The notes beneath the pieces are model-generated. The model was not told where the DNA came from, did not search any database, and saw only the letters and a list, made by a program, of their open reading frames with translations. From positions 6,184 through 70,183 of the forward strand of contig CAYSEV010000003.1 in assembly GCA_964430295.1 (NCBI GenBank): a stretch of DNA of 64,000 nt, written 5' to 3'. This document shows positions 1,088-39,669 of the stretch, one piece after another. The translations under genes and the position numbers were made by a program. Positions within the stretch are counted from its first letter, which is position 1; every line of letters starts with the position of its first letter. Source of the DNA: an uncultured Gammaproteobacteria bacterium. Lineage in GTDB: Bacteria > Patescibacteriota > Microgenomatia > UBA10105 > UBA927.

Positions 1088-1105
1088 CTACCAACTTATG
1101 TAGTT
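1086..1105. terminator. weak hairpin between convergent genes (aactac-N8-gtagtt)
   Basis: A 6-bp inverted repeat overlaps the stop codons of ORF 92..1087 and dnaN. It is not T-rich on either side. Confidence 0.2.
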
Positions 1106-2199
1106 CTGACAGGCATTATGATGTGAAGAAATGATTCATCCGTTGTGGATTTAAAGACTCCAGGGTTAAGTGATCCTGTCATTTCAAAGATCAATTCGCT
1201 TTCCTGAATATTTGATAAGAGATCCGTCAGAAATTTGCTGTTAAATGCCATTTCCCCGCCTTCTCCCGTCACTTGCGCATCTATTTCTATTTGGTCTTCC
1301 CCTATTTGGGGCGTGTTTGCGCTCACTAGCACAGTTTGATCTTTTATTTGAAGCTTTATTATGTTTGCGCTGTCTCGGGCAAATATACTTGCTGACTTTA
1401 CTGCTTTTGAAAGAACTGCTGTTTCAATAACTACGCTGGTGTTGTGTTTTGTCGGGATAATCCGTTCATAATTAGGATAGTCGCCATCAATAAGCCTTGT
1501 TCGTATTTCAGTATCCCCAATCACAAAAAGAAGCTGATTGTCTTTTTGTCTTGCCAGCTGTATCTCTTTCACATCTTTTTCTTCGTTTGATATTTTTAAG
1601 ACCTCTGCAATAGCTTTTGCCGGCACCAAAAGATCTAACCCGTGATCAGTGTCGGTTGTTTGTTTTTTAACAGAGAGTCTATATCCATCAGTTGCCGCAA
1701 AGTTCAGCTCTCCGTCTTTTTCAATGATTCTAATTCCGGTTAGAACTGGCCTTCCCTCATCTGTGGCAGCGCTAAACACCACCCGGTTAAGATTTCTCAC
1801 AAGATCATCCTTATTCATCGTTATGGCGTTTTTTAGTTCGGGTTGTGGTAGCGGTGGGTATTCTTTTGCTGCAATTCCTGGAATCACTGCCTTATATCCA
1901 TTACAAACAATAAGAAGCGCTCCTTCTTTTTCTGACATGTCCACGGTTCCTTGAGGCAAAGACGCAACGTATTCACAAAGTAGTTTAGAGGGAACACAAA
2001 CCCCTCCCTCTTCTATGATTTTTGATCCCACGAGTACTGTTTCGGTTGTCTCCAGGTTTGTCGCTGTCACTTTTAGCCTTCCGCTCTCTGTTGTTAATAA
2101 GACATTTTGTAGTATCGGCAGCTGTGGTTTTGTTGGCACTATTCGTCCGGTTCGAAGCAGGGTTCTGAATAGGTTTTCCTGAAGAATTTGAATATTCAT
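1096..2199 (-). CDS. dnaN: DNA polymerase III beta subunit (sliding clamp)
   Basis: 367 aa. The N-terminus MNIQILQENLFRTLLRTGRIVPTKPQLPILQNVLL is typical of the beta clamp. It lies immediately downstream of dnaA in the canonical arrangement. Confidence 0.9.
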   Translation of the reverse strand: MNIQILQENLFRTLLRTGRIVPTKPQLPILQNVLLTTESGRLKVTATNLETTETVLVGSKIIEEGGVCVPSKLLCEYVASLPQGTVDMSEKEGALLIVCNGYKAVIPGIAAKEYPPLPQPELKNAITMNKDDLVRNLNRVVFSAATDEGRPVLTGIRIIEKDGELNFAATDGYRLSVKKQTTDTDHGLDLLVPAKAIAEVLKISNEEKDVKEIQLARQKDNQLLFVIGDTEIRTRLIDGDYPNYERIIPTKHNTSVVIETAVLSKAVKSASIFARDSANIIKLQIKDQTVLVSANTPQIGEDQIEIDAQVTGEGGEMAFNSKFLTDLLSNIQESELIFEMTGSLNPGVFKSTTDESFLHIIMPVRTT

Positions 2200-2412: not shown

Positions 2413-3780
2413 TTATGCCCAGACTTTCAATTTAATCCCCTCAACATCGTTTCGAAGGTGTTCATTTGTGGATAATTCTTTTGCAATGGCATCCACGCCA
2501 TGCATAACCGTTGTGTGATCTCTTCCTCCTAAAAGCCCGCCGATGTCTCCATGAGTGAGACCGAGTTCTGTTCTGCACAAATACATAAAGACCTGTCTTG
2601 GACGGGCAATCGGTCTATCCCTTTTGGGGCCCCTCATTGCTGTGGATTTAATACCAAAATATTCCGCAACAGCTTCCATTAAATCTTGCGGAGGCACTCT
2701 TTTTTGCGTTCGCTCCGTCTGCTTAATTGCCGGTTTAATACTCAGTAATGAAGAAATCAATTCCGTAGATACCTCTATATTTTTTGTTGCAGTTTCTGTT
2801 ATGAGTCTTCTAAGAAAACCTTCTATAGCTCTTGTATCAGAAATGTTTGCGGCTATGAGCTGAGCAGACTCAGAAGAAACCGCAAGCCCAAGAGCCTTTG
2901 ATTTTATATTGATAATAGCCACTCGCAGTTCAAAGTCCGGATTAGCGACATCCACCGTTAACCCGCCCTCAAATCGGCTTCGAAGCCTATCTTCGAGTTT
3001 TGAAATCTCTGTAGGAGGTCTATCTGATATAAGAATTATTTGTCCCCCTTCTCTATGAACTGCGTTAAACGTATGAAAAAACTCCTCTTGTGCCGTCAAC
3101 TTTCCTGCAATAAATTGGACATCATCAACCAACAGCAGTTGTGCATTTCGATATTTCTGTTTGAACTGACGGGCTGTTTTTGTCTGTATAGCTTCAACAA
3201 TTTCGTTTAAAAACTCCTCACCCATACAATACACCACCCTAGTTGTCGGTTTTCGTTGCAAGATGCTGTTGGCAACAGCATGCATTAAATGAGTTTTACC
3301 GACTCCTACCCCGCCGTAAATAAACAAAGGGTTATATGCTGTTCCCGGAGAGCGGGCAACCGCTGTTGCCGCCGCATAAGCCATTTGGTTTGATGTGGAA
3401 ACCGCGAAATTTTCAAACGTTGCATCCGGACGAATATGAAGCCGTCTGGAAAGAGAAGAAAGATCCTGTTCTCCACTTGAGGCGGGAACCGAAGCAAAGA
3501 GCGGACCGGCGTCTTTAGAGGAGAGCTTTTCTTTTTTTGGAACCACCGAGAACACCATGCTTATGTTTTCGTGTGTGTGGTGGTCTAATATGCTTTTGAC
3601 GAGAGAATAATATCTCGTTTCTACGAGCGTTCTCATGAGAGGGCTTGTAAAGCTGATATGAGCGACATTATCAGATAGAGATAATAGCCTAGAGCTCGCA
3701 AAATGTGTTTGAAACGTAGCTTTAGAAACCGATAATTCGATCTCTGCTAATACCGTCTTCCAGAGTTTTTCAGTATCCAT
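2413..3780 (-). CDS. dnaA: chromosomal replication initiator DnaA
   Basis: 455 aa. Walker A GGVGVGKTHL. C-terminal DNA-binding signature LTHGDIGGLLGGRDHTTVMHGVDAIAKEL. Box VII/sensor region LLLVDDVQFIAGK. Confidence 0.95.
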   Translation of the reverse strand: MDTEKLWKTVLAEIELSVSKATFQTHFASSRLLSLSDNVAHISFTSPLMRTLVETRYYSLVKSILDHHTHENISMVFSVVPKKEKLSSKDAGPLFASVPASSGEQDLSSLSRRLHIRPDATFENFAVSTSNQMAYAAATAVARSPGTAYNPLFIYGGVGVGKTHLMHAVANSILQRKPTTRVVYCMGEEFLNEIVEAIQTKTARQFKQKYRNAQLLLVDDVQFIAGKLTAQEEFFHTFNAVHREGGQIILISDRPPTEISKLEDRLRSRFEGGLTVDVANPDFELRVAIINIKSKALGLAVSSESAQLIAANISDTRAIEGFLRRLITETATKNIEVSTELISSLLSIKPAIKQTERTQKRVPPQDLMEAVAEYFGIKSTAMRGPKRDRPIARPRQVFMYLCRTELGLTHGDIGGLLGGRDHTTVMHGVDAIAKELSTNEHLRNDVEGIKLKVWA

Positions 3781-3837
3781 GATGCGTAATACATGAGCAG
3801 AGTAATATAGTGACGCAGCGCATGAGGGTTATATCAC

Positions 3838-3861
3838 ATTGTGGATAAGTTGTCCACAAGA
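3838..3861. promoter_or_regulatory. inverted pair of DnaA boxes upstream of dnaA (second half of bipartite oriC / dnaA autoregulation)
   Basis: The sequence tTGTGGATAAgTTGTCCACAag contains a perfect TGTGGATAA box and a TGTGGACAA box in inverted orientation. It lies 60 nt upstream of the dnaA start. Confidence 0.6.
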
Positions 3862-3899
3862 ACACCCACATCACAGCCGTGCTATCATAGTGTAGAGAT

Positions 3900-5909
3900 A
3901 TGATTTCATCGACACAAATCATGGTTAGTTTAGTTATCCTCGGGTGCATGGTTCTCTTAGGCGATGAAAAACAATCAATTGTTTTTATAGTTTCTGTAGC
4001 TGCGACAATTTGTCTTTATATTTATGATTGGTATAAAGGTAAAAAAAAGTATGTTATTGCGACGGACACTCTGGTGCTTTGGTTATTGCTTGGGGTGTCT
4101 TTCATACTATCATCAATACACTCGTTAAGTCGTGGATATTCATTCACAGAAGGTATCAAGTATATAAACGCCTTTTTGTTATTTGTCTATTTTTCAAATA
4201 AAACAGATCAAAAAGATATCCATCGATACGCAACAGCCTTATATTATTGGACCATTGTAATCCTCGTGATTTCGTATATGTTTGTTTTTTTCCCTATATT
4301 CAGGTCTTTTTTACCCCTGATGAACCTTTTGTATAAATCTTATGACCATAGTCATGTTGTCGATGTTTTGATATTTACAACCCCCTTATGGATATATATG
4401 TTGAAACAAAAAAAAGATCTGATCACCAAACTAAGTGTTCTGTTTTTAGCATCCGGTCTATTAACATCGTATGCAAGAGGCGCAATACTACTCATATTAA
4501 TTATGGGTGCTATTTTTGGGAAAAAATACCTTCACGGGAAATATAGCAAGCAAGGGTCCTGGTTTCTTTTCTTGAGCACTGTGCTAAGTATTGGCGCCCT
4601 TGTTTATTTTACGTACGGTATAAGGAGTAATCCTATATCAGGAGTATTACATAAACTAAACACTCAAAAAATGGTGACGGTTGAAAGCAGAATGGGCTTT
4701 TGGAAACAAGCGATAACTTCTATAAAAACATATCCTCTCTTTGGACAGGGACCCGGTACATTCTATTTGGTGTCCAAAAAATTTCAATCGGAGCCCAACT
4801 CATATTCCTGGTTCGCGCACAGCTTCCCTCTTCAGTCCGTCACAGAGATGGGTCTTTTAGGTTTTATAATTTTATTTCTCTTATTATATAAATTATTGTT
4901 TATTAATAAAAAAGGATTGTTATTTCATAGTGCTCTCAATATTACGCCCGAGGCCTCTCTACTTCATGGTATTATTCTGGTCTTTCTTTACAGTTTTTTT
5001 GAGATGAATATGGATTTTACAGTGGTTTGGGTTCTCTTTTGGTCTATACTAGGAATGTTAAATCAGGTTCAAAATAAATCGCATAGTTCCAACAAAAAAA
5101 CAAATATCCACGTAATCATTCCATTAGTTATTCTTAGTGTATTCTATGTGAGTGCCATTCTGGGTTCTATTACTAATGCAAATCATAGAACGCAAGATCT
5201 TGCAGTAATGATTATGCCCTATGATGCAAATATTGTCGGCTCATATCTTGAAAAATTGCCAACCAAAAAAGCCGTTACACAAACACAAAAAAAGATAATA
5301 CGATTTTTCCACGCATATAATTCCTCTATTCTTGTTAATTTGGCATCAGCCGAAACGGATCCGATAAAATATGATGATTATATGAAAACGGCGATTGAAA
5401 GTGATCCTCAAAACAGGTCAAATCTTGAAACGTACATAACCTATTCTCTCAAAAATAACAGAGACGATAATCTCCAATATATTGTTAAAACCATGGCACA
5501 GACCATAAGTGTACAAAAGCAAAAAGATCAAAACTATATAGAAACCAGATGGAAAAACATACACAATTGTTTTAACTCGGCATCACTAATCTGGAATGAT
5601 TCTCCGTATGTAGATACCTATCAGGCAAAATCTCTGTATTTTGCCTCATTATGTCTTATTAAAGAAGGAAATTTTGAAGATGGAAAACGATTGATGGAGA
5701 TTGCCGTTAACGCAAAAACCAGTTGGAGCAATATTTACATTGACTATGCGGCAATAATATGGTGGAATGAGGGAAATTACGCTAAAGCAAAAACAATTCT
5801 GAAAGAGTGTGAAAAAAATGAAAACGCTAGAAATCATTGCTCCCAGTTTGATAACGGCCAATTATCTCATACTAGTGTGCAGGATAAAAATATTTCATTT
5901 ATAAAATAA
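3900..5909 (+). CDS. polytopic membrane protein with O-antigen-ligase/polymerase-like (Wzy_C) core and C-terminal TPR-like soluble domain
   Basis: 669 aa. About 10 predicted TM helices in the N-terminal 420 aa. The loop motif HSFPLQSVTEMGLLGFIILFLLLY is typical of the O-antigen ligase family. The C-terminal ~250 aa is hydrophilic and helical, with TPR-like repeats. Its stop overlaps the start of the radical SAM gene. Confidence 0.55.
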   Translation: MISSTQIMVSLVILGCMVLLGDEKQSIVFIVSVAATICLYIYDWYKGKKKYVIATDTLVLWLLLGVSFILSSIHSLSRGYSFTEGIKYINAFLLFVYFSNKTDQKDIHRYATALYYWTIVILVISYMFVFFPIFRSFLPLMNLLYKSYDHSHVVDVLIFTTPLWIYMLKQKKDLITKLSVLFLASGLLTSYARGAILLILIMGAIFGKKYLHGKYSKQGSWFLFLSTVLSIGALVYFTYGIRSNPISGVLHKLNTQKMVTVESRMGFWKQAITSIKTYPLFGQGPGTFYLVSKKFQSEPNSYSWFAHSFPLQSVTEMGLLGFIILFLLLYKLLFINKKGLLFHSALNITPEASLLHGIILVFLYSFFEMNMDFTVVWVLFWSILGMLNQVQNKSHSSNKKTNIHVIIPLVILSVFYVSAILGSITNANHRTQDLAVMIMPYDANIVGSYLEKLPTKKAVTQTQKKIIRFFHAYNSSILVNLASAETDPIKYDDYMKTAIESDPQNRSNLETYITYSLKNNRDDNLQYIVKTMAQTISVQKQKDQNYIETRWKNIHNCFNSASLIWNDSPYVDTYQAKSLYFASLCLIKEGNFEDGKRLMEIAVNAKTSWSNIYIDYAAIIWWNEGNYAKAKTILKECEKNENARNHCSQFDNGQLSHTSVQDKNISFIK

Positions 5910-5910
5910 T

Positions 5911-6915
5911 ATGTATCCAAAACACGCAATTATCGCAGTAACTCTTAACTGTAATTCTCGTTGCATTATGTGCAACATATGGAAGAATCGTATTACAAAT
6001 GAGTTGCAACCACATGAGTTTCTAAAAATCCCCTCGTCACTCATAGATATTAATATTACCGGTGGAGAACCATTTTTACGAAAAGATCTGGTGGAAATTA
6101 TCGCAAATATGAAAAAAGCTGCTCCCAAAGCGAGAATGGTTATGATTTCGAATGGGTTTATGCCCCATAGAGCATCAGAGGATTTGCCAAAGATCTATAA
6201 AATAGATCCAAACTTTGCCTTTAGAGTTTCTATTGATGGTATAGGTAAAGCCCATGATGAAATTCGAAGGATTCCTGGCGGATTCGATAAGATCATGAAA
6301 ACCATTGAAGCAGCCAGAAAAGCCGGCCTGAAAGATTTAGGAGTCTCTTTTACAGTTATCGATCAAAATGTGAGTGAAATTCCTAAAGTACGAGAATTTT
6401 GTAAAAAAAATGATTTAGAGTTTTCTATTACCGTTGCAACCAATTCTGTTATATATTTTGGCTCAGATAAAAGTTCTCTTCGTCCAAAACATCCGGAAAA
6501 ACTTGAAGAACAACTTCGGAGTCTTTCGCGGGACCATTATAGTCATATTAATCCAAAAGAAATAAGTAGAGGGTGGTTTGTTAAAGGGCTAATAGAGTAC
6601 ATGAATACAGGCAAGCGAACACTCCCCTGCGATGCTGGACAAGGGTTTTATTATATGGACTCAGTCGGCAATGTTTATACGTGTCATTTAAAACCCTGGA
6701 TAATGGGTAATATACGACAAGATTCACTGGATCAGATTTTTGGAAGAAATATACACGCTGGCAAAGTCGCCGCGTGTAATGATTGCTGGATGGTTTGTAC
6801 GGCAAAATCAATGATGAAAAAACGTTTAGCCCTTATTTTACCCGGTGTTATTCCAGATGTACTGGATGCCTTGGTTCAATACGCATTCCAAAATAAATCA
6901 AGCTCTACCGTGTGA
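5911..6915 (+). CDS. radical SAM protein with C-terminal SPASM-like Cys cluster
   Basis: 334 aa. A CxxxCxxC motif occurs at residues 14-21 (CNSRCIMC). C-terminal cysteines CDAGQG...YTCH...ACNDCWMVC are typical of a SPASM/twitch auxiliary Fe-S domain. It is translationally coupled to the upstream Wzy-TPR gene. Confidence 0.7.
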   Translation: MYPKHAIIAVTLNCNSRCIMCNIWKNRITNELQPHEFLKIPSSLIDINITGGEPFLRKDLVEIIANMKKAAPKARMVMISNGFMPHRASEDLPKIYKIDPNFAFRVSIDGIGKAHDEIRRIPGGFDKIMKTIEAARKAGLKDLGVSFTVIDQNVSEIPKVREFCKKNDLEFSITVATNSVIYFGSDKSSLRPKHPEKLEEQLRSLSRDHYSHINPKEISRGWFVKGLIEYMNTGKRTLPCDAGQGFYYMDSVGNVYTCHLKPWIMGNIRQDSLDQIFGRNIHAGKVAACNDCWMVCTAKSMMKKRLALILPGVIPDVLDALVQYAFQNKSSSTV

Positions 6916-6932
6916 GAATGATATTCCGTATT

Positions 6933-7937
6933 TTATTTGTCTGACAGGATTGCCAATTGAAGTTCTTTTTTGAAATGTGAGTAGTCATTGGTTCTATAGA
7001 AATGCACACGTTTTGTGTGTTTGTATTCATCCCTCAAAAAATCTCCGACCAAGCAATTTTTATCATATGACAATGCCTCAGCAACACTAATTGGATACCC
7101 TTCAATATTAGACGGTAGGACAAATAATCTGCAGTTGCTGATTAACTCTCTTTTTTCACGCCCGAAGACGTATCCGGTAAATATGATTTTTTTGGATTTA
7201 GCAAGCTTATACAATGTCTTTGTATATATATCCGAATGACTGGATCCTCCTGCAAGAACGATAGGGACAGAGACATCATCAGATGCTCTTATAAGCCACT
7301 CAATGCGTTTCTCAGGCACAAATCTCCCTAAAAATAAGATGTAATTGTTTTTTCTTAGGCCATATTTTTTTGTGATTATCTGGGCTGTTATGTTGTGTTG
7401 TTTTGTTGTGCTGTATACATCTAATATTGTATCCCTCTTATAAATATGTTTATAGCGTTTCGCTATTTTTATAGAAACGGCATATAGATTATGAGAGCAG
7501 GCCAAAACCACCCTCTCAGAAATTAAAAGAAATATCTTTGCCCCAAGTCCCCATTTTTTTCGCTCCCAATCAAAAGAATGAATGGTGGTATGAATTTTTT
7601 TTCCAAAAAAGCGAGGGATAAATGAAAAAAACGCCGGACCAACACCGTGATACCATACTATATCATTTGAACTAAAAGCTGCATGAAGGGAAGCAAAAAA
7701 ACTATATGAAATAGTGTCTAAATGAGTACTGTTAATAGACCAGATTGGTATAAGTATTGCTCCCTTATAGCGTTTAATATCAGTATCTGTTTGTGTCCAT
7801 GATCGTATATAGCATGATACTCGCGAACCCTTTGTTATAGATTCCAGCTTGTGTTGTATATAAGCTTCAATACCAGATGTCCCAGAAAATTCCATCGGTA
7901 TTCCTCTCGCTCCAATTATCGCAATCGAAGATATCAT
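6933..7937 (-). CDS. glycosyltransferase family 4 (GT-B, retaining)
   Basis: 334 aa. FLGRFVPEKRIEWLI ... EGYPISVAEALS matches the GT4 EX7E-type C-terminal motif. Confidence 0.75.
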   Translation of the reverse strand: MISSIAIIGARGIPMEFSGTSGIEAYIQHKLESITKGSRVSCYIRSWTQTDTDIKRYKGAILIPIWSINSTHLDTISYSFFASLHAAFSSNDIVWYHGVGPAFFSFIPRFFGKKIHTTIHSFDWERKKWGLGAKIFLLISERVVLACSHNLYAVSIKIAKRYKHIYKRDTILDVYSTTKQHNITAQIITKKYGLRKNNYILFLGRFVPEKRIEWLIRASDDVSVPIVLAGGSSHSDIYTKTLYKLAKSKKIIFTGYVFGREKRELISNCRLFVLPSNIEGYPISVAEALSYDKNCLVGDFLRDEYKHTKRVHFYRTNDYSHFKKELQLAILSDK

Positions 7938-7939
7938 AA

Positions 7940-9094
7940 CTATAAATTATATAATTTTATATACTCATTAATATTACGAGTGGAATAATTTTGTTTTACC
8001 ATACTCTTTGCTAACAGGATTTTTCCCATCTCATCTTCATATGAATCAAGTGCTCTGATGAGTACTCTTGTCATCTCACTGTCGTTTTTTGCTATATATC
8101 CATACGTATTATTCATCTTAGTATCTAATCCATAAAAATATTTTGTTACAACGAGTGCGCCAGTAGAAAATGCGTCTAATATTGAAACGGGAAACCCCTC
8201 GCTTTTCGCTGTTGAATTGCACACAAAACATTTAGACTGTTTTAATAACAAAGATATATCTTTTAAAGGGGTGGTAATAAAAATGTTATGTTCCAATTTG
8301 TGATGGCGAATATATTGCATGCATGCATCTTTTTCAGAGCCCTCCCCTACTAACATGCAGATAATCTTTTTTTTGGACAATCGTATAACAGTTCGTAAAA
8401 GTGTTAATAATTGGAAAATTTGTTTTTCTTTCTCTAGTCTCCCGGCATAGATAATATCTATCCGCTTTACTTTCTTTGATAATTTACAGTCAGCATACCT
8501 TGACCAATTGGGAATTATTTGTATGGTGCGAAGCGGAATGCCATAAGATCTTATAAGATCAAGCTGTATAGCCGTTGTAGGGACAATAATTCTGTCAGCA
8601 TAAGGGTATAACAATCGTATACCTAGTTCCTGAACCCAAGGCAATACCATTGTTCGTACCATGGTAGAAGTATAATGTCCCTCATTTATAATGATTGTAA
8701 CTTTTCGCCAAAAAAATATAAATTTAGTAGCGAGGACTGTTAAAGAATATGGACTTATATGTGAAGCTATTGTTGCCGGCTTTATTAAAAAAATATGGTA
8801 CCAAGCCCAAAGCATAAAAAGAAAATAATTGTCAGAACCGTTCCATCGGTAAAAATCCAATATTCTCACATTGGGGTTATTTATTACATCTCGTAAATCA
8901 AAATCCCTTTTTTCTTTTAATAGTATATATACGGGGGTATTATTGTGAGAAAATTTTAGTCTATTTACTATATCAGTTATTCTAACAGGTATTCCTCCTA
9001 ACCCAAGATTTGAATACACAATAACCAAAGGTTTAGTCATATAAATATAAATGACTGAAGAAAAAATTAGCTGTAGAAGCAAACCCATCTTCAA
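7940..9094 (-). CDS. glycosyltransferase family 4 (paralog 1 of 3); real start probably at 9040
   Basis: IYAGRLEKEKQI ... EGFPVSILDAFSTG. An internal Met, MTKPLVIVYSNLGLGGIPVRITDI, aligns with the N-termini of the paralogs at 11891 and 13000. That start gives an ATGACTAA overlap with the epimerase stop. Confidence 0.75.
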   Translation of the reverse strand: MKMGLLLQLIFSSVIYIYMTKPLVIVYSNLGLGGIPVRITDIVNRLKFSHNNTPVYILLKEKRDFDLRDVINNPNVRILDFYRWNGSDNYFLFMLWAWYHIFLIKPATIASHISPYSLTVLATKFIFFWRKVTIIINEGHYTSTMVRTMVLPWVQELGIRLLYPYADRIIVPTTAIQLDLIRSYGIPLRTIQIIPNWSRYADCKLSKKVKRIDIIYAGRLEKEKQIFQLLTLLRTVIRLSKKKIICMLVGEGSEKDACMQYIRHHKLEHNIFITTPLKDISLLLKQSKCFVCNSTAKSEGFPVSILDAFSTGALVVTKYFYGLDTKMNNTYGYIAKNDSEMTRVLIRALDSYEDEMGKILLAKSMVKQNYSTRNINEYIKLYNL

Positions 9095-10025
9095 AGCTTT
9101 TCATATCATGTCCCCCAGTGATATCCAATATCTTTTTATTGTTTGCCCACGTTTGGAGCATCTCTATTGAAGAATACTGTCGTTTACGCAATTGTAAGGA
9201 GTACCCATGCTGCTTAATAATAGTCTTTGCAATATCGAGAACATCCTTTAATAAGACAGGTTTTCCTGTCCCTATATTAAAAATCCGAAAACCATTTGGA
9301 TGATATAGTGTACTCAAAAGCATATGTGTAAAATCATCAATATATGTCCAGTCTCTTGAGAGTTTCTCTGGACTATATATGTCTATTTCTGATTCATTTT
9401 TTGCCGAAATTAATAATTTCATCGGTAGCATATCCGGTCTGCCATTTGGGCCATACACGCTAAATGGACGAATGAGACTAATCGGTATTTTAGTTTTCTC
9501 ATAAAAGTTCTTCACAGCTATTTCCATAGCGGTCTTCGATGCTCCATACGTTGATATCGGTGTCGACATCTGTATCGGTTCTTGTTCTGAAAACGGAACA
9601 TTTGAGCAGTTTCCATACACGGATGATGAACTGAATATAACTGCATGCCTAATCGTAGTCCTACATGCTTCGAGCATAGAAAGTGTTCCAACCACATTTG
9701 TAGAAAAGTATTTAACGGGAAATTGCTCGCCATTTCTTACACCCACTTCAGCGGCAGTATGTATTAATACGGAAGGTTTAAATTCATTAATTAATAAACG
9801 CAATTTCACGGCCTCTGTTATAGATGTTTTAGAAAAAATAAAATTAGAGTGTTCTTTGAGCTCTATTAATCTATATTGCTTTATTTTTTTTGAATAATAT
9901 GTATTAAGATTATCTATACCAACGACAAGTGCATTATTGTCTTTTGAGAGTATTTTTTTACACACCGCGCTTCCTATAAAACCGGCGGCGCCTGTGACGA
10001 GGTAAACATGTGCATTACGTATCAT
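9033..10025 (-). CDS. NAD-dependent sugar-nucleotide epimerase/dehydratase (SDR family)
   Basis: 330 aa. The N-terminus has the Rossmann motif VTGAAGFIGSAV. YxxxK-type SDR, about the length of a UDP-sugar 4-epimerase. Confidence 0.8.
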   Translation of the reverse strand: MIRNAHVYLVTGAAGFIGSAVCKKILSKDNNALVVGIDNLNTYYSKKIKQYRLIELKEHSNFIFSKTSITEAVKLRLLINEFKPSVLIHTAAEVGVRNGEQFPVKYFSTNVVGTLSMLEACRTTIRHAVIFSSSSVYGNCSNVPFSEQEPIQMSTPISTYGASKTAMEIAVKNFYEKTKIPISLIRPFSVYGPNGRPDMLPMKLLISAKNESEIDIYSPEKLSRDWTYIDDFTHMLLSTLYHPNGFRIFNIGTGKPVLLKDVLDIAKTIIKQHGYSLQLRKRQYSSIEMLQTWANNKKILDITGGHDMKSFEDGFASTANFFFSHLYLYD

Positions 10026-10085: not shown

Positions 10086-11894
10086 ATGTGCGGAATACTA
10101 GGATTTACCGGCAAAAGAAACAAAAAAGAACTGTCCAGACTCCTTTCTATAATTCAACATCGGGGATTTGACGGACAGTCCATCTTTATACAAAATGATG
10201 TCCACTTCGGTATGAATAGGCTTGCCATTATAGATTTGACAAAAAATCTCTATCCAATGAAATATAAAAAACTAACATTGGTATTTAATGGTGAAATCTA
10301 TAATTTTAAAGATTTGAAGAACATGTTACAACAAAAAGGCATTCACTTTAAAACAAATAGTGATGCCGAAATTATTCTCCCCCTCTATGATCTATATGGC
10401 AATAAGGCATTCAGCATGTTAGAGGGAATGTTCGCAATTAGTATTTATAACAATAAATCAAAAAAAATTCTGTTAATAAGAGATAAGTCTGGAGAAAAAC
10501 CATTATACTATGTCAAATCTGGAGATAACTTTTTTTTCTCATCAGAAATAAAGGTATTATTACAAATACCAGGAATTGCAAAGCAGTTAAATCGTCCGAG
10601 ACTCAGTGAATATTTCACGCATGGTTTTGTACACGCACCAAACACATTAATACAATCGATTAAAAAGCTCCCGCCTGCAACAGTGTTAACATTTAATGTT
10701 CAAACGCAATCATTAGTCACAAAAAAATATTGGGATGTATCTTCCTTTAACAACACTGCTATATCAATTAACGTGAGATCGTCTCGAAGTATATTAGATA
10801 AATTGCTTTCAGATTCAGTAATGTTAAGACTGATATCGGATGTCCCGATTGGTTGCTTTTTGAGCGGCGGAATTGACTCCAGTTTGATCTGCCAGTACGC
10901 AGTGCTAGTTAACCCAATGCTTCGTACGTACTCAGCGACTTTTCCGGGGTATGAAAATCAGGACGAATCAATATTTTCTTCGTATGTGGCAAAAATGTTA
11001 AAAACAAATCATACGCAAGTTGAATGTACAAGCACAGCTGTAATAGAAGTATTAGAAAATCTTGGCACATTGATAGACGAACCCATAGTTGATCCTGCAT
11101 TTGTTCCAACATTCCTTTTGGCTCGAGAAGCCAGAAAAAAAGTAAAAGTAGTTTTAACTGGAGAAGGCGCAGATGAACTTTTTGCAGGGTATTCTCGTTA
11201 CACAGTTGAAACGCAAAAAGAAAAGCTCCATAATGCAATAATCTCTTCAAAATTAACGCAATATATATGGAAACAAGTGTTTGGGAATACTCGCAGAAGA
11301 ATACTATTGCCTATTGATAAAAGATATAGTCCTCAGCATGTTTGGGATATGCATGAGTTATGTCTTGCTGAAAAATACACAAAAGAGCCGGGGTTGATGA
11401 ATGAACGATATTATTCCCCAAAAAAATCCACTCTATTTTATCTCCAGACAAATGACTTTGCACGATATCTGTCTGATCAATTATTAAACAAAGTAGATAA
11501 AGCAACAATGGCGGCAAATCTTGAAGCAAGAGCTCCGTATTTGGACTCTCGTATCATTGAGTATGCATTCTCTATACCAGACAACCAAAAACACAACTTC
11601 TTACAGGGGAAACTGGCTTTAAAAAAAGTTGCGGAAAAATATTTTCCTAAAAAATATGTATGGAGGAAAAAGCACGGTTTTGAAATGCCGTTATCTGAAT
11701 GGTTCAAAAAAGATCTTAAAATGTACGCTTACGATTCACTGTCAGCAGCAGCAAAATACCCCACTATTTTTGAATATGCCCGTTACAAACGGATTATAGA
11801 TGACCATATGAATGGTTCAAAAAATAATGCTAATAAAATATGGAGCATGATTGTCTTAACCAGATGGCTGCTTCGCAATGAAATTGTCGTATGA
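10086..11894 (+). CDS. asnB: asparagine synthetase B-like glutamine amidotransferase (WbpS-type, polysaccharide-associated)
   Basis: 602 aa. N-terminal Ntn nucleophile MCGILGF, a class II GATase. The central PP-loop SGGIDSS sits in FLSGGIDSSLI. The glycan-cluster context suggests sugar-carboxylate amidation rather than Asn biosynthesis. Confidence 0.8.
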   Translation: MCGILGFTGKRNKKELSRLLSIIQHRGFDGQSIFIQNDVHFGMNRLAIIDLTKNLYPMKYKKLTLVFNGEIYNFKDLKNMLQQKGIHFKTNSDAEIILPLYDLYGNKAFSMLEGMFAISIYNNKSKKILLIRDKSGEKPLYYVKSGDNFFFSSEIKVLLQIPGIAKQLNRPRLSEYFTHGFVHAPNTLIQSIKKLPPATVLTFNVQTQSLVTKKYWDVSSFNNTAISINVRSSRSILDKLLSDSVMLRLISDVPIGCFLSGGIDSSLICQYAVLVNPMLRTYSATFPGYENQDESIFSSYVAKMLKTNHTQVECTSTAVIEVLENLGTLIDEPIVDPAFVPTFLLAREARKKVKVVLTGEGADELFAGYSRYTVETQKEKLHNAIISSKLTQYIWKQVFGNTRRRILLPIDKRYSPQHVWDMHELCLAEKYTKEPGLMNERYYSPKKSTLFYLQTNDFARYLSDQLLNKVDKATMAANLEARAPYLDSRIIEYAFSIPDNQKHNFLQGKLALKKVAEKYFPKKYVWRKKHGFEMPLSEWFKKDLKMYAYDSLSAAAKYPTIFEYARYKRIIDDHMNGSKNNANKIWSMIVLTRWLLRNEIVV

Positions 11895-18383: not shown

Positions 18384-21380
18384 TCACTTGATGATAAATA
18401 ATAGGTCGGTTGTAAACATGGGAGTCTGTATATCCATCTTCCCTTTTATGACCTGTTGATGAAGAATTATTTCTCCATTTTCTGGATTAATCCAGTATAT
18501 TGTACCATCCTTATGCACCTCAAGTGAGAGCGTAGCTCTATTTTTTTCTGGATTAAATATTTTTGTATACACATATCCGTATATGATATCTGCGGATATA
18601 ACTGAAAACACCTTATGCTTTTTATTATTGGATGTAATATCGTATTTTTGAATATCAGTCCCTATATCAGCTATGTATGTAGAGAAAATTGAAGCGTAAG
18701 ATCTTTCTATAGGTCCTAAATATACATTGGATGGCCCAGTTTTGTTTTCAAAATACACATTCGGCATATTCCAAGATATTATTGACGCCTGTCTGAAAAA
18801 ACTTAACCAGAGTCTAATCCTGTATCTGATAGGAGAAAATATATCCCAATTTGCGAAATTATTCCCCTGTTCACTAAAGATCATCGGTTTATCATATTTC
18901 ACAAATTTATCTACCTCTCGGGCAAGATCCTGATCGCAATATTCATTACACTCTCCGCTATACCAGTGATAAGAAGTGGCCTCTATATCACTTAAGTCAG
19001 GTCTCTCCCAACTGGTTGTAATTGGGTGTTTATAGGGGTCTATAGCCCTTATATATGCGGCCATATAATGTATTAGGTCGTCACTGAGTTTGATTTCATT
19101 TGCAAGTTCCCACACATCAACATAGGCTCCGTATCGCGAGACTATATAATCCAGATAATTTTGTAATTGTTTTTTTTGGTCCGTTAATGGAATATCAGAA
19201 CCATAGGGTAATTCAAAGCTCATGAGGCTCATCCAGGTGTGGTATCTATTTTTCTTTAACGTGCTGAGAATAGAATCAAGCAAGATCCCTTCGTTTACTT
19301 TTGGACCAATATTACCTGATTTTCCGAAATTCCAAAGCATAAAACTACAGTTGCCAGCTCCCCATCTGTATGTATTAAATCCACTGTCAGCGTACGTTGC
19401 TAGGTAGTCTTCCACAGTTGTTGTTTTATAAAATGAATCATCGTCTGATCCTTTAACCTCATCGTCCAACGGCCATGCATTCAATGGGTTTCCATCATGA
19501 TGTAAATCATTTACACAATTTTGAATACCTATTGGTAAGAAGATATTTCCATTTGAACTCGCAAAGTACTTTTTGTTAATCTTTGAGAGGTAAATATAAC
19601 CGGGATTATTGGACTCTGTTACCAGAAAACTTCCTCTTTCCTGTTTGGTCTCAAATATCGAATTAGACAAGAATCTCCACTTCCAAATTCCGACCGTATC
19701 AGGTGAGAATCTAAGCTTCCACGTTTTTATATCATAATAAAACGCTTTTATAGTATATTCTTTATTGATTGGAGAGGTTAAGACAATACTGTATTCTGTG
19801 TTAAGCTGATCGCCCTTTTCTTTATTAGATTTCAATATGAGCTCAAAAATGCCATTTTTTAGTACAAATTTTTGTGGTTGTTCTATCGTTATTTTCAGAA
19901 GCTGTAGCTTGCTGTTGGCTTCATGAATTAAATAATGTATACGTGATATCAGTTCATTAATATAAGATATATTTATAAGATTTCTCTTTGTGATATTTCC
20001 ATGTAAAAAATCCGAATTTAAGCTCGTAATGCTGGTATTTTCTTTATTTAAAAAAAATATATCCTGATTAAAAGATTGTATGGAATCTATATCTATATCA
20101 TCAGAGGTATATTGCCATAACATATCTCCGTTTAGGTGATTTTGAAAGGAAACAACAGTTGATTTATCTGCTTTAGAAATAATAAAAACTCCTCGTTTAT
20201 TAGCTTTTGTTGCCACTGTGTCTATTTTTTTGTTTGTGCACCAATGTACGTCGCCGGAGAAAGACAAAGAACATTGTATTGTTTGGCCCACAATGACTAT
20301 ATTTTTATCAATGATTTGATATGAAAAATTTTGAATATTCGAAAAGGAATGTGACCACAGCTCGACACCATGTTTTGTGTCTAGAGCTACAAGAATTGTT
20401 GCATTAATATTAGAATATGTTACAAGTGCAAAATCTTTAGTTGCTTCCGTAATTCCAAGAGGACTATTATATGAATTATTATATGTCCACTCTTGTTTAG
20501 CAGTATTTGCATCTATACATTCAATTGCATTGTCATCTCGAATCACATATATACATGACACCCCCACTTGTAATGAATTATCAGATGAAGAAATCTCCAG
20601 TAAAGTTTCTCCAGATATTTTATTAAGAAGTTTGTATGTATTCGAATCATCCCAATATCCGATTGTTTTGTGAAATATAGAGGGTTTAGAAAAAAAGTAA
20701 TTATGTAAAGGCACATCCCATATTTTCTTACCGGTTCCCAAATCAATTGCAATAAGTCTGTTTTCGGTCGCACTATTAAGATATACAGTCGCATCATCTG
20801 TAGCAAATCTTCCGAAATGCAAAATTATCTCATCACTTTTATAATACGATGTATCTATTTGTTTTGTCGTATAAGTCCAGTGAAGTGATCCTGTGATTTT
20901 ATTAACAGCGTACAATGTCCCGTTTCTGCTCCCAAATAAGACATCTTGGTCAGTAACCACAGGTTCCGTATCAATTTTAGTTCGATCTGGTGTGGTAAAT
21001 CTCCAAAGTTCATTACCTGTATGTTTATCTAATGAATACAGATTTCCATCAAAATTCGTGAGAAATAGTTGATTATTCTTATCAAATTCGGATAAATAAA
21101 TTGAATAGCTTTGCTCATTGTGCCTCCAACGCAACAATCCGGTTCGTATATCTATAGAGGTCATTACGTTATCAAGTCCGCTATAAAATAAGGAGATGTT
21201 ATTAAAAGTGAGTGAGTGAAAAATTTTAGGAAGCGTTTTATGTGTCGCAACTGGATTTTTAAATGAATATACCCAGCCCGCTGAATTAAATATATTCCAT
21301 AGTAATATGGCCGTGCATACGATAAAACCAAAGAAAAAAATACGTATGATCAGTGCAAAATACTTCTTTATTTTTTGCAT
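18384..21380 (-). CDS. membrane-anchored PQQ-like beta-propeller fused to clan GH-A (GH5-like) TIM-barrel glycoside hydrolase
   Basis: 998 aa with an N-terminal TM helix. Repeated G-LY-(S/A)-(L/V)-D/N-K-x-TG-x-x-(L/H)-W units (LYSLDKHTGNELW, LYAVNKITGSLHW) indicate PQQ-type propeller blades. The C-terminal part carries the GH-A acid/base motif VDVWELANE and the nucleophile motif IFSEQG. Confidence 0.6.
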   Translation of the reverse strand: MQKIKKYFALIIRIFFFGFIVCTAILLWNIFNSAGWVYSFKNPVATHKTLPKIFHSLTFNNISLFYSGLDNVMTSIDIRTGLLRWRHNEQSYSIYLSEFDKNNQLFLTNFDGNLYSLDKHTGNELWRFTTPDRTKIDTEPVVTDQDVLFGSRNGTLYAVNKITGSLHWTYTTKQIDTSYYKSDEIILHFGRFATDDATVYLNSATENRLIAIDLGTGKKIWDVPLHNYFFSKPSIFHKTIGYWDDSNTYKLLNKISGETLLEISSSDNSLQVGVSCIYVIRDDNAIECIDANTAKQEWTYNNSYNSPLGITEATKDFALVTYSNINATILVALDTKHGVELWSHSFSNIQNFSYQIIDKNIVIVGQTIQCSLSFSGDVHWCTNKKIDTVATKANKRGVFIISKADKSTVVSFQNHLNGDMLWQYTSDDIDIDSIQSFNQDIFFLNKENTSITSLNSDFLHGNITKRNLINISYINELISRIHYLIHEANSKLQLLKITIEQPQKFVLKNGIFELILKSNKEKGDQLNTEYSIVLTSPINKEYTIKAFYYDIKTWKLRFSPDTVGIWKWRFLSNSIFETKQERGSFLVTESNNPGYIYLSKINKKYFASSNGNIFLPIGIQNCVNDLHHDGNPLNAWPLDDEVKGSDDDSFYKTTTVEDYLATYADSGFNTYRWGAGNCSFMLWNFGKSGNIGPKVNEGILLDSILSTLKKNRYHTWMSLMSFELPYGSDIPLTDQKKQLQNYLDYIVSRYGAYVDVWELANEIKLSDDLIHYMAAYIRAIDPYKHPITTSWERPDLSDIEATSYHWYSGECNEYCDQDLAREVDKFVKYDKPMIFSEQGNNFANWDIFSPIRYRIRLWLSFFRQASIISWNMPNVYFENKTGPSNVYLGPIERSYASIFSTYIADIGTDIQKYDITSNNKKHKVFSVISADIIYGYVYTKIFNPEKNRATLSLEVHKDGTIYWINPENGEIILHQQVIKGKMDIQTPMFTTDLLFIIK

Positions 21381-22289: not shown

Positions 22290-23828
22290 TTAAACTGCGG
22301 GCAATATCGATAAGAAAACCCACAACCATCCGATTATTTGTTGCTCTGTAAGTATAGGATAAAACTGAGAAAGTATCATAAAAGATATAATTGGAAGAAG
22401 GTAAATTGAATGATGCCCTATATACCCTTTGGAATGTTCGTTTATTCCACTCAAAAAATATTTTTTGGAATAACACAAAAAAAGCATAAAAGATAATAAT
22501 CCAGCATACCCGGACGCCACAAGAATTTGAGCGAATAGATTATGTGGTTGTGTGGGATATGAACTAAAACCACCTATTGTTTCAAGTAAAATTTGTGGAA
22601 ATGTTCCGAGTCCTATGCCAAAAGGATTTTGTGATACTATCTGAAAACTCTGTATTATGAGGTTCCAACGAAAATTCGCTCCTCCATCTTGTCCAAATGT
22701 AATAATAAATTGTGACAAACGCGGGATAACAAGAATGGGAAGCACAAGTACACCGATAATTCCTGATATTTTATATAATACAGGCAGCTTATTGGTTTCT
22801 CTTTGTTTTTTATATATATACAATAATTCAATTGCTACTATAATCCAAGACAACCTACTTGCTGATAATAGGAGCGCGACAAAAGAAGCAATAAATGCAA
22901 ATGAAGAGATTTTTTTTCCGAAATTTGACGTCCGTTTTGCAATTGAATAGTAGAATAGAAGCGGTAATATGAGTGCTATAAAAAATCCCAGAGAGTTTGG
23001 ATGCGAGAAAGTTCCTTGAATTCTGACAAATGAAATATCTTCGCTTGCAATATGAAGAATGCTGTCTGATAGAGACGGGTCAGCCGAATTTTCAATAAGC
23101 TTTCCTAAAGGACCTTTATTTATAAATTGGAGTATACTGATGAATCCCTCGAATATACCCAGTGCTGAAAAGATCGGGAGAAAATGATGAGTAACCCAAT
23201 ACCCTAATTTATACTGTTGAATATAGTAATACAGGTAAATATATAGTGAAAATTGCATAAGAAGAAGAAAGGATAACAATGGTATAGGTGAGATGATACT
23301 AGAAAATATATTTAATATAAGAAATGTTCCAATAAATATATCCTTAGTTTCGATTTTAGAAGTGGAGATCTTTATCTTTGGCAAATAAATAATATCTCTT
23401 AAAGATAGATATATAAGTATTAACACCATAAATCCAGTTAGCGATATACCCACAGACATAATAAAAGGTAATCTTCCATTTACATACTCAGGGGATACAA
23501 CCAGAAAATCGATGCTTTTTCCGCTTTGAAAAGGTAAACAAAATATAGAGGAATATAACAAAGCTGTCCGGATGGATTTGAAAACGTAAAGAAGACCACA
23601 AATGAAAAGTATAGCGAGAGCAAGAAGTATTTTATTATTAGGCGCGTATAACAATATGAAAAGAAACAGGATAGACCACCAGAATAGTTTTTTTTCAGTC
23701 GACCAACTATCTATGGTAGTGCGTACGCTACCTATTAAAGTATATAATCCGTTCATAGTATGAAAGATGCATTGGTAATTATACTGTATGATCATCCCAA
23801 AGAGCATACTGCCGACTATTGTACGCAA
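22290..23828 (-). CDS. O-antigen ligase/polymerase-like (Wzy_C) polytopic membrane protein
   Basis: 512 aa and multi-TM. The segment SASRLSWIIVAIELLYIYKK is typical of the Wzy_C loop-helix region. The start is ambiguous: an alternative Met 25 at 23756 removes the 69-nt antisense overlap with the next gene. Confidence 0.55.
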   Translation of the reverse strand: MRTIVGSMLFGMIIQYNYQCIFHTMNGLYTLIGSVRTTIDSWSTEKKLFWWSILFLFILLYAPNNKILLALAILFICGLLYVFKSIRTALLYSSIFCLPFQSGKSIDFLVVSPEYVNGRLPFIMSVGISLTGFMVLILIYLSLRDIIYLPKIKISTSKIETKDIFIGTFLILNIFSSIISPIPLLSFLLLMQFSLYIYLYYYIQQYKLGYWVTHHFLPIFSALGIFEGFISILQFINKGPLGKLIENSADPSLSDSILHIASEDISFVRIQGTFSHPNSLGFFIALILPLLFYYSIAKRTSNFGKKISSFAFIASFVALLLSASRLSWIIVAIELLYIYKKQRETNKLPVLYKISGIIGVLVLPILVIPRLSQFIITFGQDGGANFRWNLIIQSFQIVSQNPFGIGLGTFPQILLETIGGFSSYPTQPHNLFAQILVASGYAGLLSFMLFLCYSKKYFLSGINEHSKGYIGHHSIYLLPIISFMILSQFYPILTEQQIIGWLWVFLSILPAV

Positions 23829-28484: not shown

Positions 28485-28608
28485 GCGCGTATGGTACTAC
28501 TGCTTTTACAGTGAGGTCAAGGAATATACCTGTATAATGCTATATCGTATACGGATTGTATCGTCTTTGATATTATATAGCTGAAATATAGGAAATACAC
28601 TCGCATAT

Positions 28609-31190: not shown

Positions 31191-31205
31191 ATAGCAATTT
31201 TAAAA

Positions 31206-32189
31206 TTACCAACGGTAATGCACGTCATTTTTTACATAGGTATCATAGATATGTTTTATAGCTTTCATATTTGCCTCTGATAGCTTGGGTAAATCACTTG
31301 AAGCAGCATTTTCCTTTATTTGCAATGGTGTTTTCCCTCCAACGATAACTGTAGATACTGCGTCCTGCATTAAAATCCATTTAAGTGCAAACTGGGCCAT
31401 TGTATAATCTTTACCTTTAAGTGATTTAATTTTTCTGACTGCAGATAATCCTTTATAGAAATCAACACCTGCGAAAGTTTCTCCTTGATCAAATACTTCT
31501 CCGTGCCTATTAAAATTTCTATGATCATTTTTTGGGAATCTAGAAAATATAGAAAACTTTCCAGTCAAAAGGCCACTTGCAAGAGGCACTCTTACGATGA
31601 TGCCTATATTTCTTTTTTTTGCCTCTCTAAATAGAAGCTCCATAGGTCTTTGTCTAAACATATTAAAAATAATTTGTATTGTAGAAACATTTGGGTACTC
31701 TATTGCTTTAAGTGCCTCTTCGACTTTCTCGACACTCACACCATAAAAGCGAATTTTTTTCTTCTTCACCATCTCATCTAAAAATGAAAACACTTGTGGC
31801 ATGTAATATACTTCAGTTGGCGGTGTATGAAGTTGTAATATATCGATACATGAGGTATTTAAGTTCTTTCGACTCTGCTCTATATATGCGTGCATGTTGC
31901 TTTTTGTGTATGCATCTCTAGTATGTGGATCGGATTTTCTGCCTATTTTTGTAGCGACAATAATGCGTCTACCAGCATTTTGTATATATTCACCGATAAA
32001 TTTTTCACTTCTTCCGTTTCCATATATATCCGCCGTATCTATGAAATTTATACCAGTATCAGATATACTTGATAATGCTGTTCTAGCCTGCTCGTCCGAC
32101 ACAGTACCCCATCCACCCCCTATGCCCCAACTACCATATCCTATCTCAGAAACTTTATATCCGGTTTTTCCTAAAGTTCTATATTTCAT
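31206..32189 (-). CDS. aldo/keto reductase
   Basis: 327 aa. MKYRTLGKTGYKVSEIGYGSWGIGG...FIDTADIYGNGRSE is the classic AKR N-terminal signature. Confidence 0.85.
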   Translation of the reverse strand: MKYRTLGKTGYKVSEIGYGSWGIGGGWGTVSDEQARTALSSISDTGINFIDTADIYGNGRSEKFIGEYIQNAGRRIIVATKIGRKSDPHTRDAYTKSNMHAYIEQSRKNLNTSCIDILQLHTPPTEVYYMPQVFSFLDEMVKKKKIRFYGVSVEKVEEALKAIEYPNVSTIQIIFNMFRQRPMELLFREAKKRNIGIIVRVPLASGLLTGKFSIFSRFPKNDHRNFNRHGEVFDQGETFAGVDFYKGLSAVRKIKSLKGKDYTMAQFALKWILMQDAVSTVIVGGKTPLQIKENAASSDLPKLSEANMKAIKHIYDTYVKNDVHYRW

Positions 32190-32210
32190 AGATATTGTAA
32201 AATAAACACA

Positions 32211-33581: not shown

Positions 33582-33645
33582 AGAATTAAATTATGAAGGA
33601 ATAAATATAGTGGGTAGTATACCTGAGAATAGTATCTATTAAAAT

Positions 33646-34275: not shown

Positions 34276-34294
34276 TATAAACATATGGAGACAT

Positions 34295-39634: not shown

Positions 39635-39669
39635 AATATATACGATTAAAGTGTTCTATTAATACACGG

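Follow-up and report, generated by a model that had tools for sequence, protein, structure and literature searches.

Twitch radical S-adenosylmethionine (SAM) enzymes tailor sugars in antibiotic pathways; to our knowledge none has been characterised in the assembly of a cell-surface polysaccharide, and the literature that we searched yielded none. NeoN and HygY are carbohydrate epimerases of this kind. BtrN and SpeY are twitch carbohydrate dehydrogenases, and their substrates are sugars or cyclitols, not peptides. Another twitch enzyme, BlsE, is the cytosylglucuronate decarboxylase of the blasticidin S pathway (PDB 7VOB; PMC3715490) and acts on a sugar-acid nucleoside. Here we describe a radical SAM gene in a 64,000-nucleotide stretch of contig CAYSEV010000003.1 (assembly GCA_964430295.1); this whole stretch is called the window. 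The gene product is probably a twitch-type enzyme of a large, uncharacterised family, responsible for a tailoring step in Wzx/Wzy-type glycan assembly, and we put the probability that it modifies a carbohydrate in the assembly of a cell-surface glycan at about 0.68. Carbohydrate-acting twitch enzymes are already known; what sets this family apart is the surface-glycan setting, the coupling and fusion to glycosyltransferases, and the wide distribution, which includes gut commensals.

BlsE is the best fold match of the window protein. The two are of similar size, have one auxiliary-cluster domain and lack a RiPP recognition element (RRE). However, they are only about 20% identical, BlsE belongs to an antibiotic pathway and not to a surface-glycan locus, and it is neither linked nor fused to a family 4 glycosyltransferase (GT4). 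BtrN and SpeY share with the window protein the single-cluster pattern Cx(9-15)Gx4C … CxxC and appear among both its fold and its sequence matches, but their TM scores are 0.39-0.45, they serve aminoglycoside pathways, and the family described here has an extra conserved cysteine, C296, and one clade without the cluster. anSME, SkfB, CteB, PqqE and SuiB belong to the same superfamily of radical SAM enzymes with a C-terminal Fe-S domain. They have a seven-cysteine SPASM domain and/or an N-terminal RRE, and the peptide or protein on which they act is encoded in the vicinity; the window gene shows none of these features.

Two further systems resemble the locus in other ways. HpnJ belongs to a different class of radical SAM enzyme, with a B12-like domain. 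In the pathways of calditol synthase (Cds) and of HpnJ, which makes the hopanoid cyclitol ether, the hexose that a glycosyltransferase has attached is then remodelled, on its lipid carrier, by a radical SAM enzyme, a precedent for ring contraction (PMC13459092). Their likeness to the window protein lies in pathway logic, and their products are membrane-lipid head groups, not Wzx/Wzy glycans. A conserved pairing of a GT4 with a radical SAM enzyme has a curated precedent in TIGR04157 ('glyco_rSAM_CFB'), a glycosyltransferase of Bacteroidota with a radical SAM/SPASM neighbour. The two GT4 subfamilies described below, GT-A and GT-B, score 33 and 43 bits against this model, the cut-off of which is 400. 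According to its TIGRFAMs description, the TIGR04157 system also includes a target peptide.

The radical SAM protein and its family

The window protein matches the Pfam Radical_SAM domain (PF04055) at 1.8e-17 (64.4 against 29.5 bits) and the Pfam SPASM domain marginally (22.8 bits against a cut-off of 21.5). As a preliminary description of this DNA, made from the sequence alone, had reported, CxxxCxxC lies at residues 14-21 (C14, C18 and C21), and it is kept in 72-73 of the 73 homologues from other genomes on which our cysteine typing rests; the SAM-binding GGE motif (G51-G52-E53) is invariant in all 73. The same description saw in the C-terminal cysteines a cluster typical of SPASM maturases, and here the analysis leads elsewhere. 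The SPASM motif, CX9-15GX4C-gap-CX2CX5CX3C-gap-C, binds two auxiliary [4Fe-4S] clusters. The window protein does not have this seven-cysteine motif (PF13186/TIGR04085), as it has five C-terminal cysteines and none after residue 296. The five (C240, C258, C289, C292 and C296) are all invariant in an alignment of 18 homologues with 43-82% identity. Their spacing reproduces the initial half of the SPASM motif and adds a CxxC, a twitch-like pattern suited to one auxiliary cluster. In twitch domains (BtrN, MoaA, BlsE and SkfB type), which are shortened SPASM domains with one auxiliary cluster, two Cys enclose a beta hairpin and a helix then leads to CxxC. The AlphaFold2 (AF2) model has the corresponding architecture, with strands 246-249 and 254-256 between C240 and C258 and helices before C289 and C292. 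The NCBIfam model N_Twi_rSAM gives 49.5 bits against a cut-off of 170, so that the twitch fit is architectural and not to a curated family. We therefore speak of a predicted single auxiliary Fe-S cluster in a twitch-like domain.

The C-terminal cysteines separate the homologues into three types. Type I, which includes the window protein, has all five. Type II, from Bacteroidota, Clostridia and Actinomycetota, keeps four and has Gly instead of C296. In type III, a clade of Patescibacteria (loci L012, L014, L018, L019, L024-L026 and L028-L033), C240, C258, C289 and C292 are replaced by Ser, Asn, Asp or other residues and C296 is kept; these genes are still linked to GT-B and GT-A. Because type III has lost all four twitch cysteines, the auxiliary cluster seems to be dispensable in one clade. 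Across the 73 homologues R57, D59 and R119 are invariant and R220, R236 and K216 are mostly conserved, and such residues would suit an anionic, phosphate-bearing substrate.

The family is large and widespread. A word-indexed search found 1751 homologues at E<=1e-5, an exhaustive search gave 842 cluster-50 representatives at E<=1e-30, and 583 species-level genome hits span the candidate phyla radiation (CPR), Acidobacteriota, Chloroflexota, Planctomycetota, Actinomycetota, Bacteroidota, Clostridia, Fibrobacterota, Desulfobacterota and some archaea. Members are currently labelled 'radical SAM protein', 'Fe-coproporphyrin III synthase' or 'MoaA/NifB/PqqE/SkfB family' (JGI auto-annotations), or 'glycosyltransferase'.

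No curated NCBIfam subfamily model reaches its cut-off for the window protein. The best match is the PTO1314 family (79.6 against 306 bits), and AhbD (72 against 500), archaeal MoaA (66.3 against 325), NirJ (60.6 against 515) and BlsE (47.1 against 400) are also found; PapB, SkfB and others fall, like these last four, at 45-75 bits, and the models for MoaA, AhbD and NirJ and for PqqE-like, anSME-like and SCIFF-type enzymes together give 40-80 bits against cut-offs of 230-650. The preliminary description had named a housekeeping assignment by such models as a result that would count against it, and no housekeeping model claims the protein. A cofactor enzyme (MoaA, AhbD or NirJ of the heme pathway, PqqE or a fragment of NifB) displaced into a glycan locus by chance would fit the JGI labels of the homologues and the weak matches to the AhbD and archaeal MoaA models given above. 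However, the curated cut-offs exceed these scores 4-9 fold, the neighbouring genes include none for heme, Moco or PQQ, and the glycan context and the glycosyltransferase fusions are conserved across phyla, and we give this explanation almost no credence.

Among proteins of known structure, SkfB is the best sequence match (2.5e-16) and BlsE the second (4e-13), with CteB, BtrN, anSME and MoaA also found, all at superfamily level. The AF2 model (pLDDT 89.6) is closest in fold to BlsE (Foldseek E 1.5e-14, TM 0.66); anSME, SkfB and MoaA come next, and the carbohydrate or nucleoside twitch enzymes BtrN, SpeY and AbmM are also among the matches. It had been stated earlier that enzymes of this class normally act on peptides. 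This is too narrow, as the twitch enzymes BtrN, BlsE and SpeY, all among the structural matches, act on carbohydrates.

Association and fusion with glycosyltransferases

Open reading frames (ORFs) were called in 80 species-level loci and then clustered by BLAST. A GT4 is the immediate neighbour of the radical SAM gene in 34 of 69 loci from many phyla, in 33 of them on the same strand, while 15% of the control genes of the same loci have an adjacent GT4 (odds ratio 5.4, p=4e-10). In each of two tight GT4 subfamilies, proteins from different phyla are connected by reciprocal scores of 200 bits or more. The first, GT-A, comprises 40 proteins with a DUF1972-type N-terminus and includes the gene that converges with the radical SAM gene in the window; GT-B has 36 members of about 410 amino acids. 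GT-A is present in 34, GT-B in 32 and both in 27 of 70 loci. Typically the three genes follow one another along one strand as GT-B, radical SAM, GT-A, and in many cases a stop codon overlaps the next start codon. Neither subfamily matches a curated NCBIfam model above its cut-off. The other neighbours are generic to the Wzx/Wzy pathway (Wzx, Wzy_C, Bac_transf, Wzz/PCP, Poly_export, DegT, short-chain dehydrogenase/reductase (SDR), acetyltransferase and NTP transferase), and no other gene cluster occurs in more than 18 of the 70 loci. The clusters that recur are of the kinds generic to glycan loci, and none of them is a further partner, such as Ugd, an aminotransferase or a reductase, that would hint at the chemistry.

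The association extends to gene fusions. In a locus from Zixibacteria (L065) the radical SAM enzyme and GT-A form one ORF of 734 amino acids, the halves of which are 33% identical to the window radical SAM protein and 30% identical to the window GT-A, respectively, each over the full length. A database search with this fusion gave 395 matches. Among the best 120, 54 have GT-B N-terminal to the radical SAM domain (51 plain fusions of about 800 amino acids and three with a short extra segment between the domains), and 16 more parse as containing GT-A (12 GT-A, two GT-A-GT4other and two GT-A-rSAM, rSAM denoting the radical SAM domain). According to Pfam, several of the GT-A-containing matches (e.g., P0183-P0187) are full fusions of the radical SAM enzyme with GT-A; P0188, P0190, P0193 and P0204 have no radical SAM domain. 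Some clusters found in this search hold hundreds to more than 1000 member sequences. One fusion comes from an isolate, Coprococcus sp. OM04-5BH (39 contigs): RHV31086.1, an 812-residue 'glycosyltransferase', is GT-B fused to a radical SAM domain that is 33% identical to residues 5-306 of the window protein (E 3e-45). The ten longest of the 150 best profile matches are fused to GT2 (three), GT4 (three), Glyco_tran_28_C (one), GHL15 (one) or a methyltransferase (one), and two carry a second radical SAM domain, one of which is also counted as a GT2 fusion. Because the family adjoins or is fused to glycosyltransferases in polysaccharide loci, the enzyme is likely to modify a sugar rather than a peptide. 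The preliminary description had listed anaerobic sugar modification among its suggestions, and this is the option that adjacency and fusions favour.

The same radical SAM domain is also fused to FAD_binding_6/NAD_binding_1, LicD, GHL15 or methyltransferase modules (P0205-P0245, e.g., P0214 from Kiritimatiellae; P0302, P0351 and P0363). The FAD_binding_6/NAD_binding_1 module is FNR-like and is probably an integral reductase that serves the cluster.

Search for a precursor peptide or a protein substrate

The preliminary description had also proposed maturation of a protein partner or a short precursor ORF hidden nearby. In that case the enzyme would be a SPASM-type maturase that cross-links or oxidises a small precursor or Cys or Ser residues of an envelope protein, perhaps held by the tetratricopeptide repeat (TPR) domain of the Wzy-like protein encoded upstream. 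TPR domains often bind peptides. SkfB is the best sequence match in the PDB, CteB, anSME, SuiB, PqqE and EpeE are among the sequence or fold matches, and there are weak NCBIfam matches to ranthipeptide and sactipeptide maturases. The maturase models, however, give 45-65 bits against cut-offs of 300-850. CxxxCxxC begins 13 residues from the N-terminus, so that no N-terminal RRE or leader-binding domain is possible, and Pfam detects neither in the protein nor in its neighbours any additional domain that could be an RRE or PqqD-like domain. Five cysteines are present where SPASM has seven, and one clade keeps just one. The anSME equivalog model is not among the 25 best NCBIfam matches shown (the PDB match to anSME is 2e-8), and no sulfatase is encoded in the part of the window between 3.9 and 40 kb. 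With intergenic gaps of 119, 1 and 17 nt, the gene pair leaves no space in which a precursor ORF could be hidden. A blastp-short comparison of 334 small intergenic ORFs, located at most three genes away from the radical SAM gene in 70 loci, found no family shared between loci, a search by which very divergent peptides could be missed. The fusions are recurrently to glycosyltransferases and never to peptidases, transporters or RRE proteins, none of the fusions and loci examined points to peptides, and the TPR partner is not conserved with the radical SAM gene. A peptide or protein maturase is thus improbable.

Junction and pairing with the Wzy-TPR gene

The ORF upstream of the radical SAM gene encodes a protein of 669 amino acids, and its stop codon (TAA, 5907-5909) is separated by one base (T, 5910) from the ATG at 5911, much as had been noted earlier. 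The description of its product as a Wzy-like protein with TPRs holds in its first part by Pfam: Wzy_C matches residues 179-326 at 1e-12 (48.5 bits against a gathering cut-off of 31.7), and in the AF2 model (pLDDT 84) the N-terminal two thirds resemble the WaaL ligase 7TPG (Foldseek E 4e-4, target-normalised TM 0.58). The second part is not borne out by Pfam, as TPR_8 (15.2 against 25.7 bits, E=0.025) and TPR_2 (14.7 against 27, E=0.034) are well below threshold, and is recovered by fold. Residues ~429-648 form paired helices in the model, and Foldseek matches them with probability ~1.0 (E ~0.03) to consensus-TPR (CTPR) proteins and to the TPR domains of OGT, SPINDLY, PilF and MamA. These models support a TPR-like helical-repeat fold for the C-terminal part.

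We found 62 homologues of this Wzy-TPR protein, mostly in Gottesmanbacteria/Patescibacteria. Three relatives with 79-82% radical SAM identity (L081, L082 and L090) have the arrangement of the window: dnaN-dnaA on one side of a divergent region, and on the other Wzy-TPR and radical SAM, converging with GT (DUF1972), GT4 and SDR genes, followed by a divergent AsnB gene. L081 has exactly the stop-N-ATG junction of the window (TAAtATG), and L090 has an equivalent one (TGAtATG). The Wzy-TPR proteins of these two are only ~40% identical to that of the window, whereas the radical SAM proteins are ~80% identical, and because the junction is kept despite this divergence its spacing has been maintained and is not due to chance. 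It probably allows co-transcription and termination-reinitiation. A promoter and terminator scan of 3600-7300 gave counts at chance level, with no signal above chance between the two genes. In public annotations the radical SAM start is called too late: P0005 (L090 3664-4647) starts from an ATG within CxxxCxxC, and P0041 and P0058 lack the motif. As a result, neither the 1-nt junction nor the cluster motif is visible in such database entries.

With junction kept in at least three genomes while Wzy-TPR fell to ~40% identity, the radical SAM enzyme might be a specific partner of Wzy-TPR that modifies the glycan or acceptor handled by this ligase or polymerase. The preliminary description had let its proposal depend on a conserved co-occurrence of the two genes, and this fails beyond close relatives. 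The pairing is found only in the window, L081, L082 and L090 (and probably also on the P0002/P0124 contig), that is, at radical SAM identities of at least ~79%. At 69% identity (L091) Wzy-TPR is gone, and the block of radical SAM converging with GT-A, GT4 and SDR, then AsnB, is kept. At 57-70% identity (L083, L085, L086 and L001) the order is GT, radical SAM and Wzx, converging with a Wzy_C gene of ~510 amino acids, DUF4330, GT4 and GT4, again without Wzy-TPR. The Wzy-TPR orthologues of L087-L089 are origin-proximal, beside dnaA, and have no radical SAM gene. Only two of the 69 genome-scan loci (L001-L080) have a Wzy-TPR homologue, and it adjoins the radical SAM gene in neither. The pairing is lineage-specific and shallow, and with three Wzy-TPR orthologues that have an RGP-family gene and no radical SAM gene, a specific partnership has little chance of being right. 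The best explanation of the 1-nt junction is a co-expressed pair in a genus-level lineage, which reflects shared membership of a glycan operon and not a specific enzyme-substrate relation.

The RGP-family gene (PF03214, the UDP-arabinopyranose-mutase family) lies directly 5' of Wzy-TPR in L087 (region 7019-10013) and L088 (7015-9983) and two genes upstream in L089 (5022-10037). In L091 (3402-6996) RGP and the radical SAM gene are two genes apart. We considered RGP and the radical SAM enzyme as alternative partners of Wzy-TPR and set this idea aside, because the window has no RGP and both genes co-occur in L091. A pentose or arabinose theme is possible, given RGP and the BlsE-like fold.

Proposed role

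The reading that we favour, modification of a sugar during surface-glycan assembly, would work as follows. The N-terminal [4Fe-4S] cluster (C14/C18/C21) would cleave SAM to give the 5'-deoxyadenosyl radical, which would take a hydrogen from a sugar. This could be a nucleotide-activated sugar; one that the polyprenyl-diphosphate carrier already bears is more likely. The enzyme would act between or alongside the transfer steps of its GT4 partners, in the window the convergent GT-A. The single auxiliary cluster (C240, C258, C289, C292) and/or C296 would then resolve the substrate radical. The order GT, radical SAM, GT and the fusions suggest that the sugar is probably lipid-linked, with an NDP-sugar as the alternative. 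Candidate chemistries are epimerisation at an unactivated carbon, uronic-acid decarboxylation as by BlsE, oxidation to a keto-sugar and ring contraction. The type III clade, which lost the auxiliary cluster yet keeps C296, argues weakly for a redox-neutral reaction, either an epimerisation with a Cys hydrogen donor or an isomerisation; the modelled resemblance to BlsE keeps uronic-acid decarboxylation in play.

Several points weigh against this reading or limit it. No member of the family has been characterised, full-text literature searches found no description of it, and it has no model in NCBIfam release 20. With 14-21% identity, the sequence and structural resemblance to BlsE, SkfB, anSME and MoaA stays at the level of the superfamily and cannot tell one substrate from another. 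The data constrain neither the substrate (NDP-sugar, lipid-linked sugar or finished polymer) nor the type of reaction. About one third of the loci have no adjacent glycosyltransferase, many of them being short contigs or distant members, the window itself has no GT-B, and the ORF calling and clustering were home-made (longest ORFs, BLAST graphs).

It is also conceivable, though unlikely, that the enzyme modifies the polyprenyl carrier or a glycolipid anchor and not a repeat-unit sugar, with Cds and HpnJ (lipid-linked hexose) and GDGT-MAS (lipid tails) as models. In the first two a radical SAM enzyme remodels the sugar after a glycosyltransferase has placed it on a lipid (PMC13459092). GDGT-MAS is among the fold matches, and GT-A resembles enzymes of the Cps2T/WchF type, which act on the first lipid-linked sugar. 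The C-terminal helix of the window protein is amphipathic and basic (hydrophobic moment ~0.4-0.5, with values of 0.2-0.56) and is suggestive of a membrane anchor, but such a helix is weak evidence. Moreover, this explanation overlaps strongly with sugar modification, from which it differs just in the moiety attacked.

A bolder version of the sugar-modifying role, which we put forward as doubtful, is that the family carries out the first radical SAM step of Wzx/Wzy glycan assembly and acts, often as a fusion, on a sugar linked to polyprenyl diphosphate, once GT-B has made its transfer and before GT-A makes its own. It would thereby make a non-canonical residue, such as a sugar epimerised at an unactivated carbon, a pentose formed by radical uronic-acid decarboxylation, or a ring-contracted or carbocyclic unit. 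The residue would be part of a conserved core in glycans of CPR bacteria, gut Lachnospiraceae, Bacteroidota, Planctomycetota and some archaea.

The family is present in human-gut Clostridia and Bacteroidota, and both adjacency and fusion tie it to two specific GT4 subfamilies. Knowledge of the reaction would bring to light a sugar modification that has so far gone unrecognised in many surface glycans, and the annotation of glycan loci would gain a name for a gene that now carries the labels listed above. The fused proteins of cultured Coprococcus are a tractable experimental entry point.

Genomic region

The features around the gene pair are collected in Table 1. The origin-proximal glycan region extends over ~3.9-40 kb of the window, and a third Wzy_C gene and Wzx lie at 48-51 kb.

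Table 1. Features of the origin-proximal part of the window
Feature	Position	Strand	Remarks
dnaN	1096-2199	-	Window starts at replication origin
dnaA	2413-3780	-	
Divergent intergenic region, dnaA (-) and Wzy-TPR gene (+)	3781-3899		Two inverted DnaA boxes at 3840-3858
Wzy_C/WaaL-fold polytopic membrane protein with C-terminal TPR-like helical-repeat domain (~429-648)	3900-5909	+	From Pfam, AF2 and Foldseek
TAA-T-ATG junction with 1-nt spacer	5907-5913	+	Kept in L081 and L090
Radical SAM enzyme, 334 aa, with twitch-like auxiliary-cluster domain and amphipathic basic C-terminal helix	5911-6915	+	
CxxxCxxC (C14, C18, C21), predicted site of the SAM-binding [4Fe-4S] cluster	5950-5973	+	
Twitch-like region: C240-x12-G-x4-C258, beta hairpin, helices, C289-xx-C292-xxx-C296	6628-6798	+	
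GT4 glycosyltransferase with weak DUF1972 N-terminus, subfamily GT-A	6933-7937	-	Convergent with the radical SAM gene, 17 nt between stops
Second GT4 glycosyltransferase of the conserved convergent block	7940-9094	-	
SDR-family NDP-sugar epimerase/dehydratase of the conserved block	9033-10025	-	
AsnB-type glutamine amidotransferase, adjoining the block	10086-11894	+	Near the XrtA/PEP-CTERM exopolysaccharide (EPS) amidotransferase model, below cut-off

Six DnaA boxes (TTATCCACA, at most one mismatch) lie in or beside the dnaN-dnaA spacer at 2256-2475, and this cluster is likely to be oriC. The inverted pair at 3840-3858 is 40-60 nt 5' of the Wzy-TPR start, within the divergent dnaA promoter region, and therefore suggests a DnaA-bound control region common to the glycan operon and dnaA. 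Rfam and tRNA scans of the window gave no matches. A defence-system identity was rejected, since PADLOC gave merely a weak match of the radical SAM core to pVip (37 bits).

Three Wzy_C-family paralogues are encoded in the window (3900-5909, 22290-23828 and 48061-49431). The host, if it is a CPR bacterium, would be without lipopolysaccharide, and the acceptors of such 'O-antigen ligase-like' proteins could be protein, lipid or wall polymer. A second, distinct polymer locus at 25795-40335 encodes two pyridoxal phosphate-dependent (PLP) decarboxylases, GlnA-like and serine hydroxymethyltransferase (SHMT)-like proteins, an aldo-keto reductase and Glyphos_transf, together with an NTP transferase, a methyltransferase, an ornithine/diaminopimelate (Orn/DAP) decarboxylase, an ABC-2 transporter pair, a class IV aminotransferase and Bac_transf. 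This content suggests a teichoic-acid-like polymer bearing an amine-derived substituent.

Related glycan loci contain extra radical SAM genes: a 297-residue radical SAM/SPASM protein is encoded in L085 (5972-6865), and a B12-binding radical SAM protein flanked by sulfotransferases in L083 (5184-6680). Radical chemistry may be common in CPR glycan loci. A protein of ~1000 amino acids with a PQQ-like beta-propeller and DUF5060 is encoded at 18384-21380 (-) in the window, from 20479 to the end of L081 and from 10010 to the end of L087; it recurs in the glycan loci of several related genomes and adjoins Wzy-TPR in L087.

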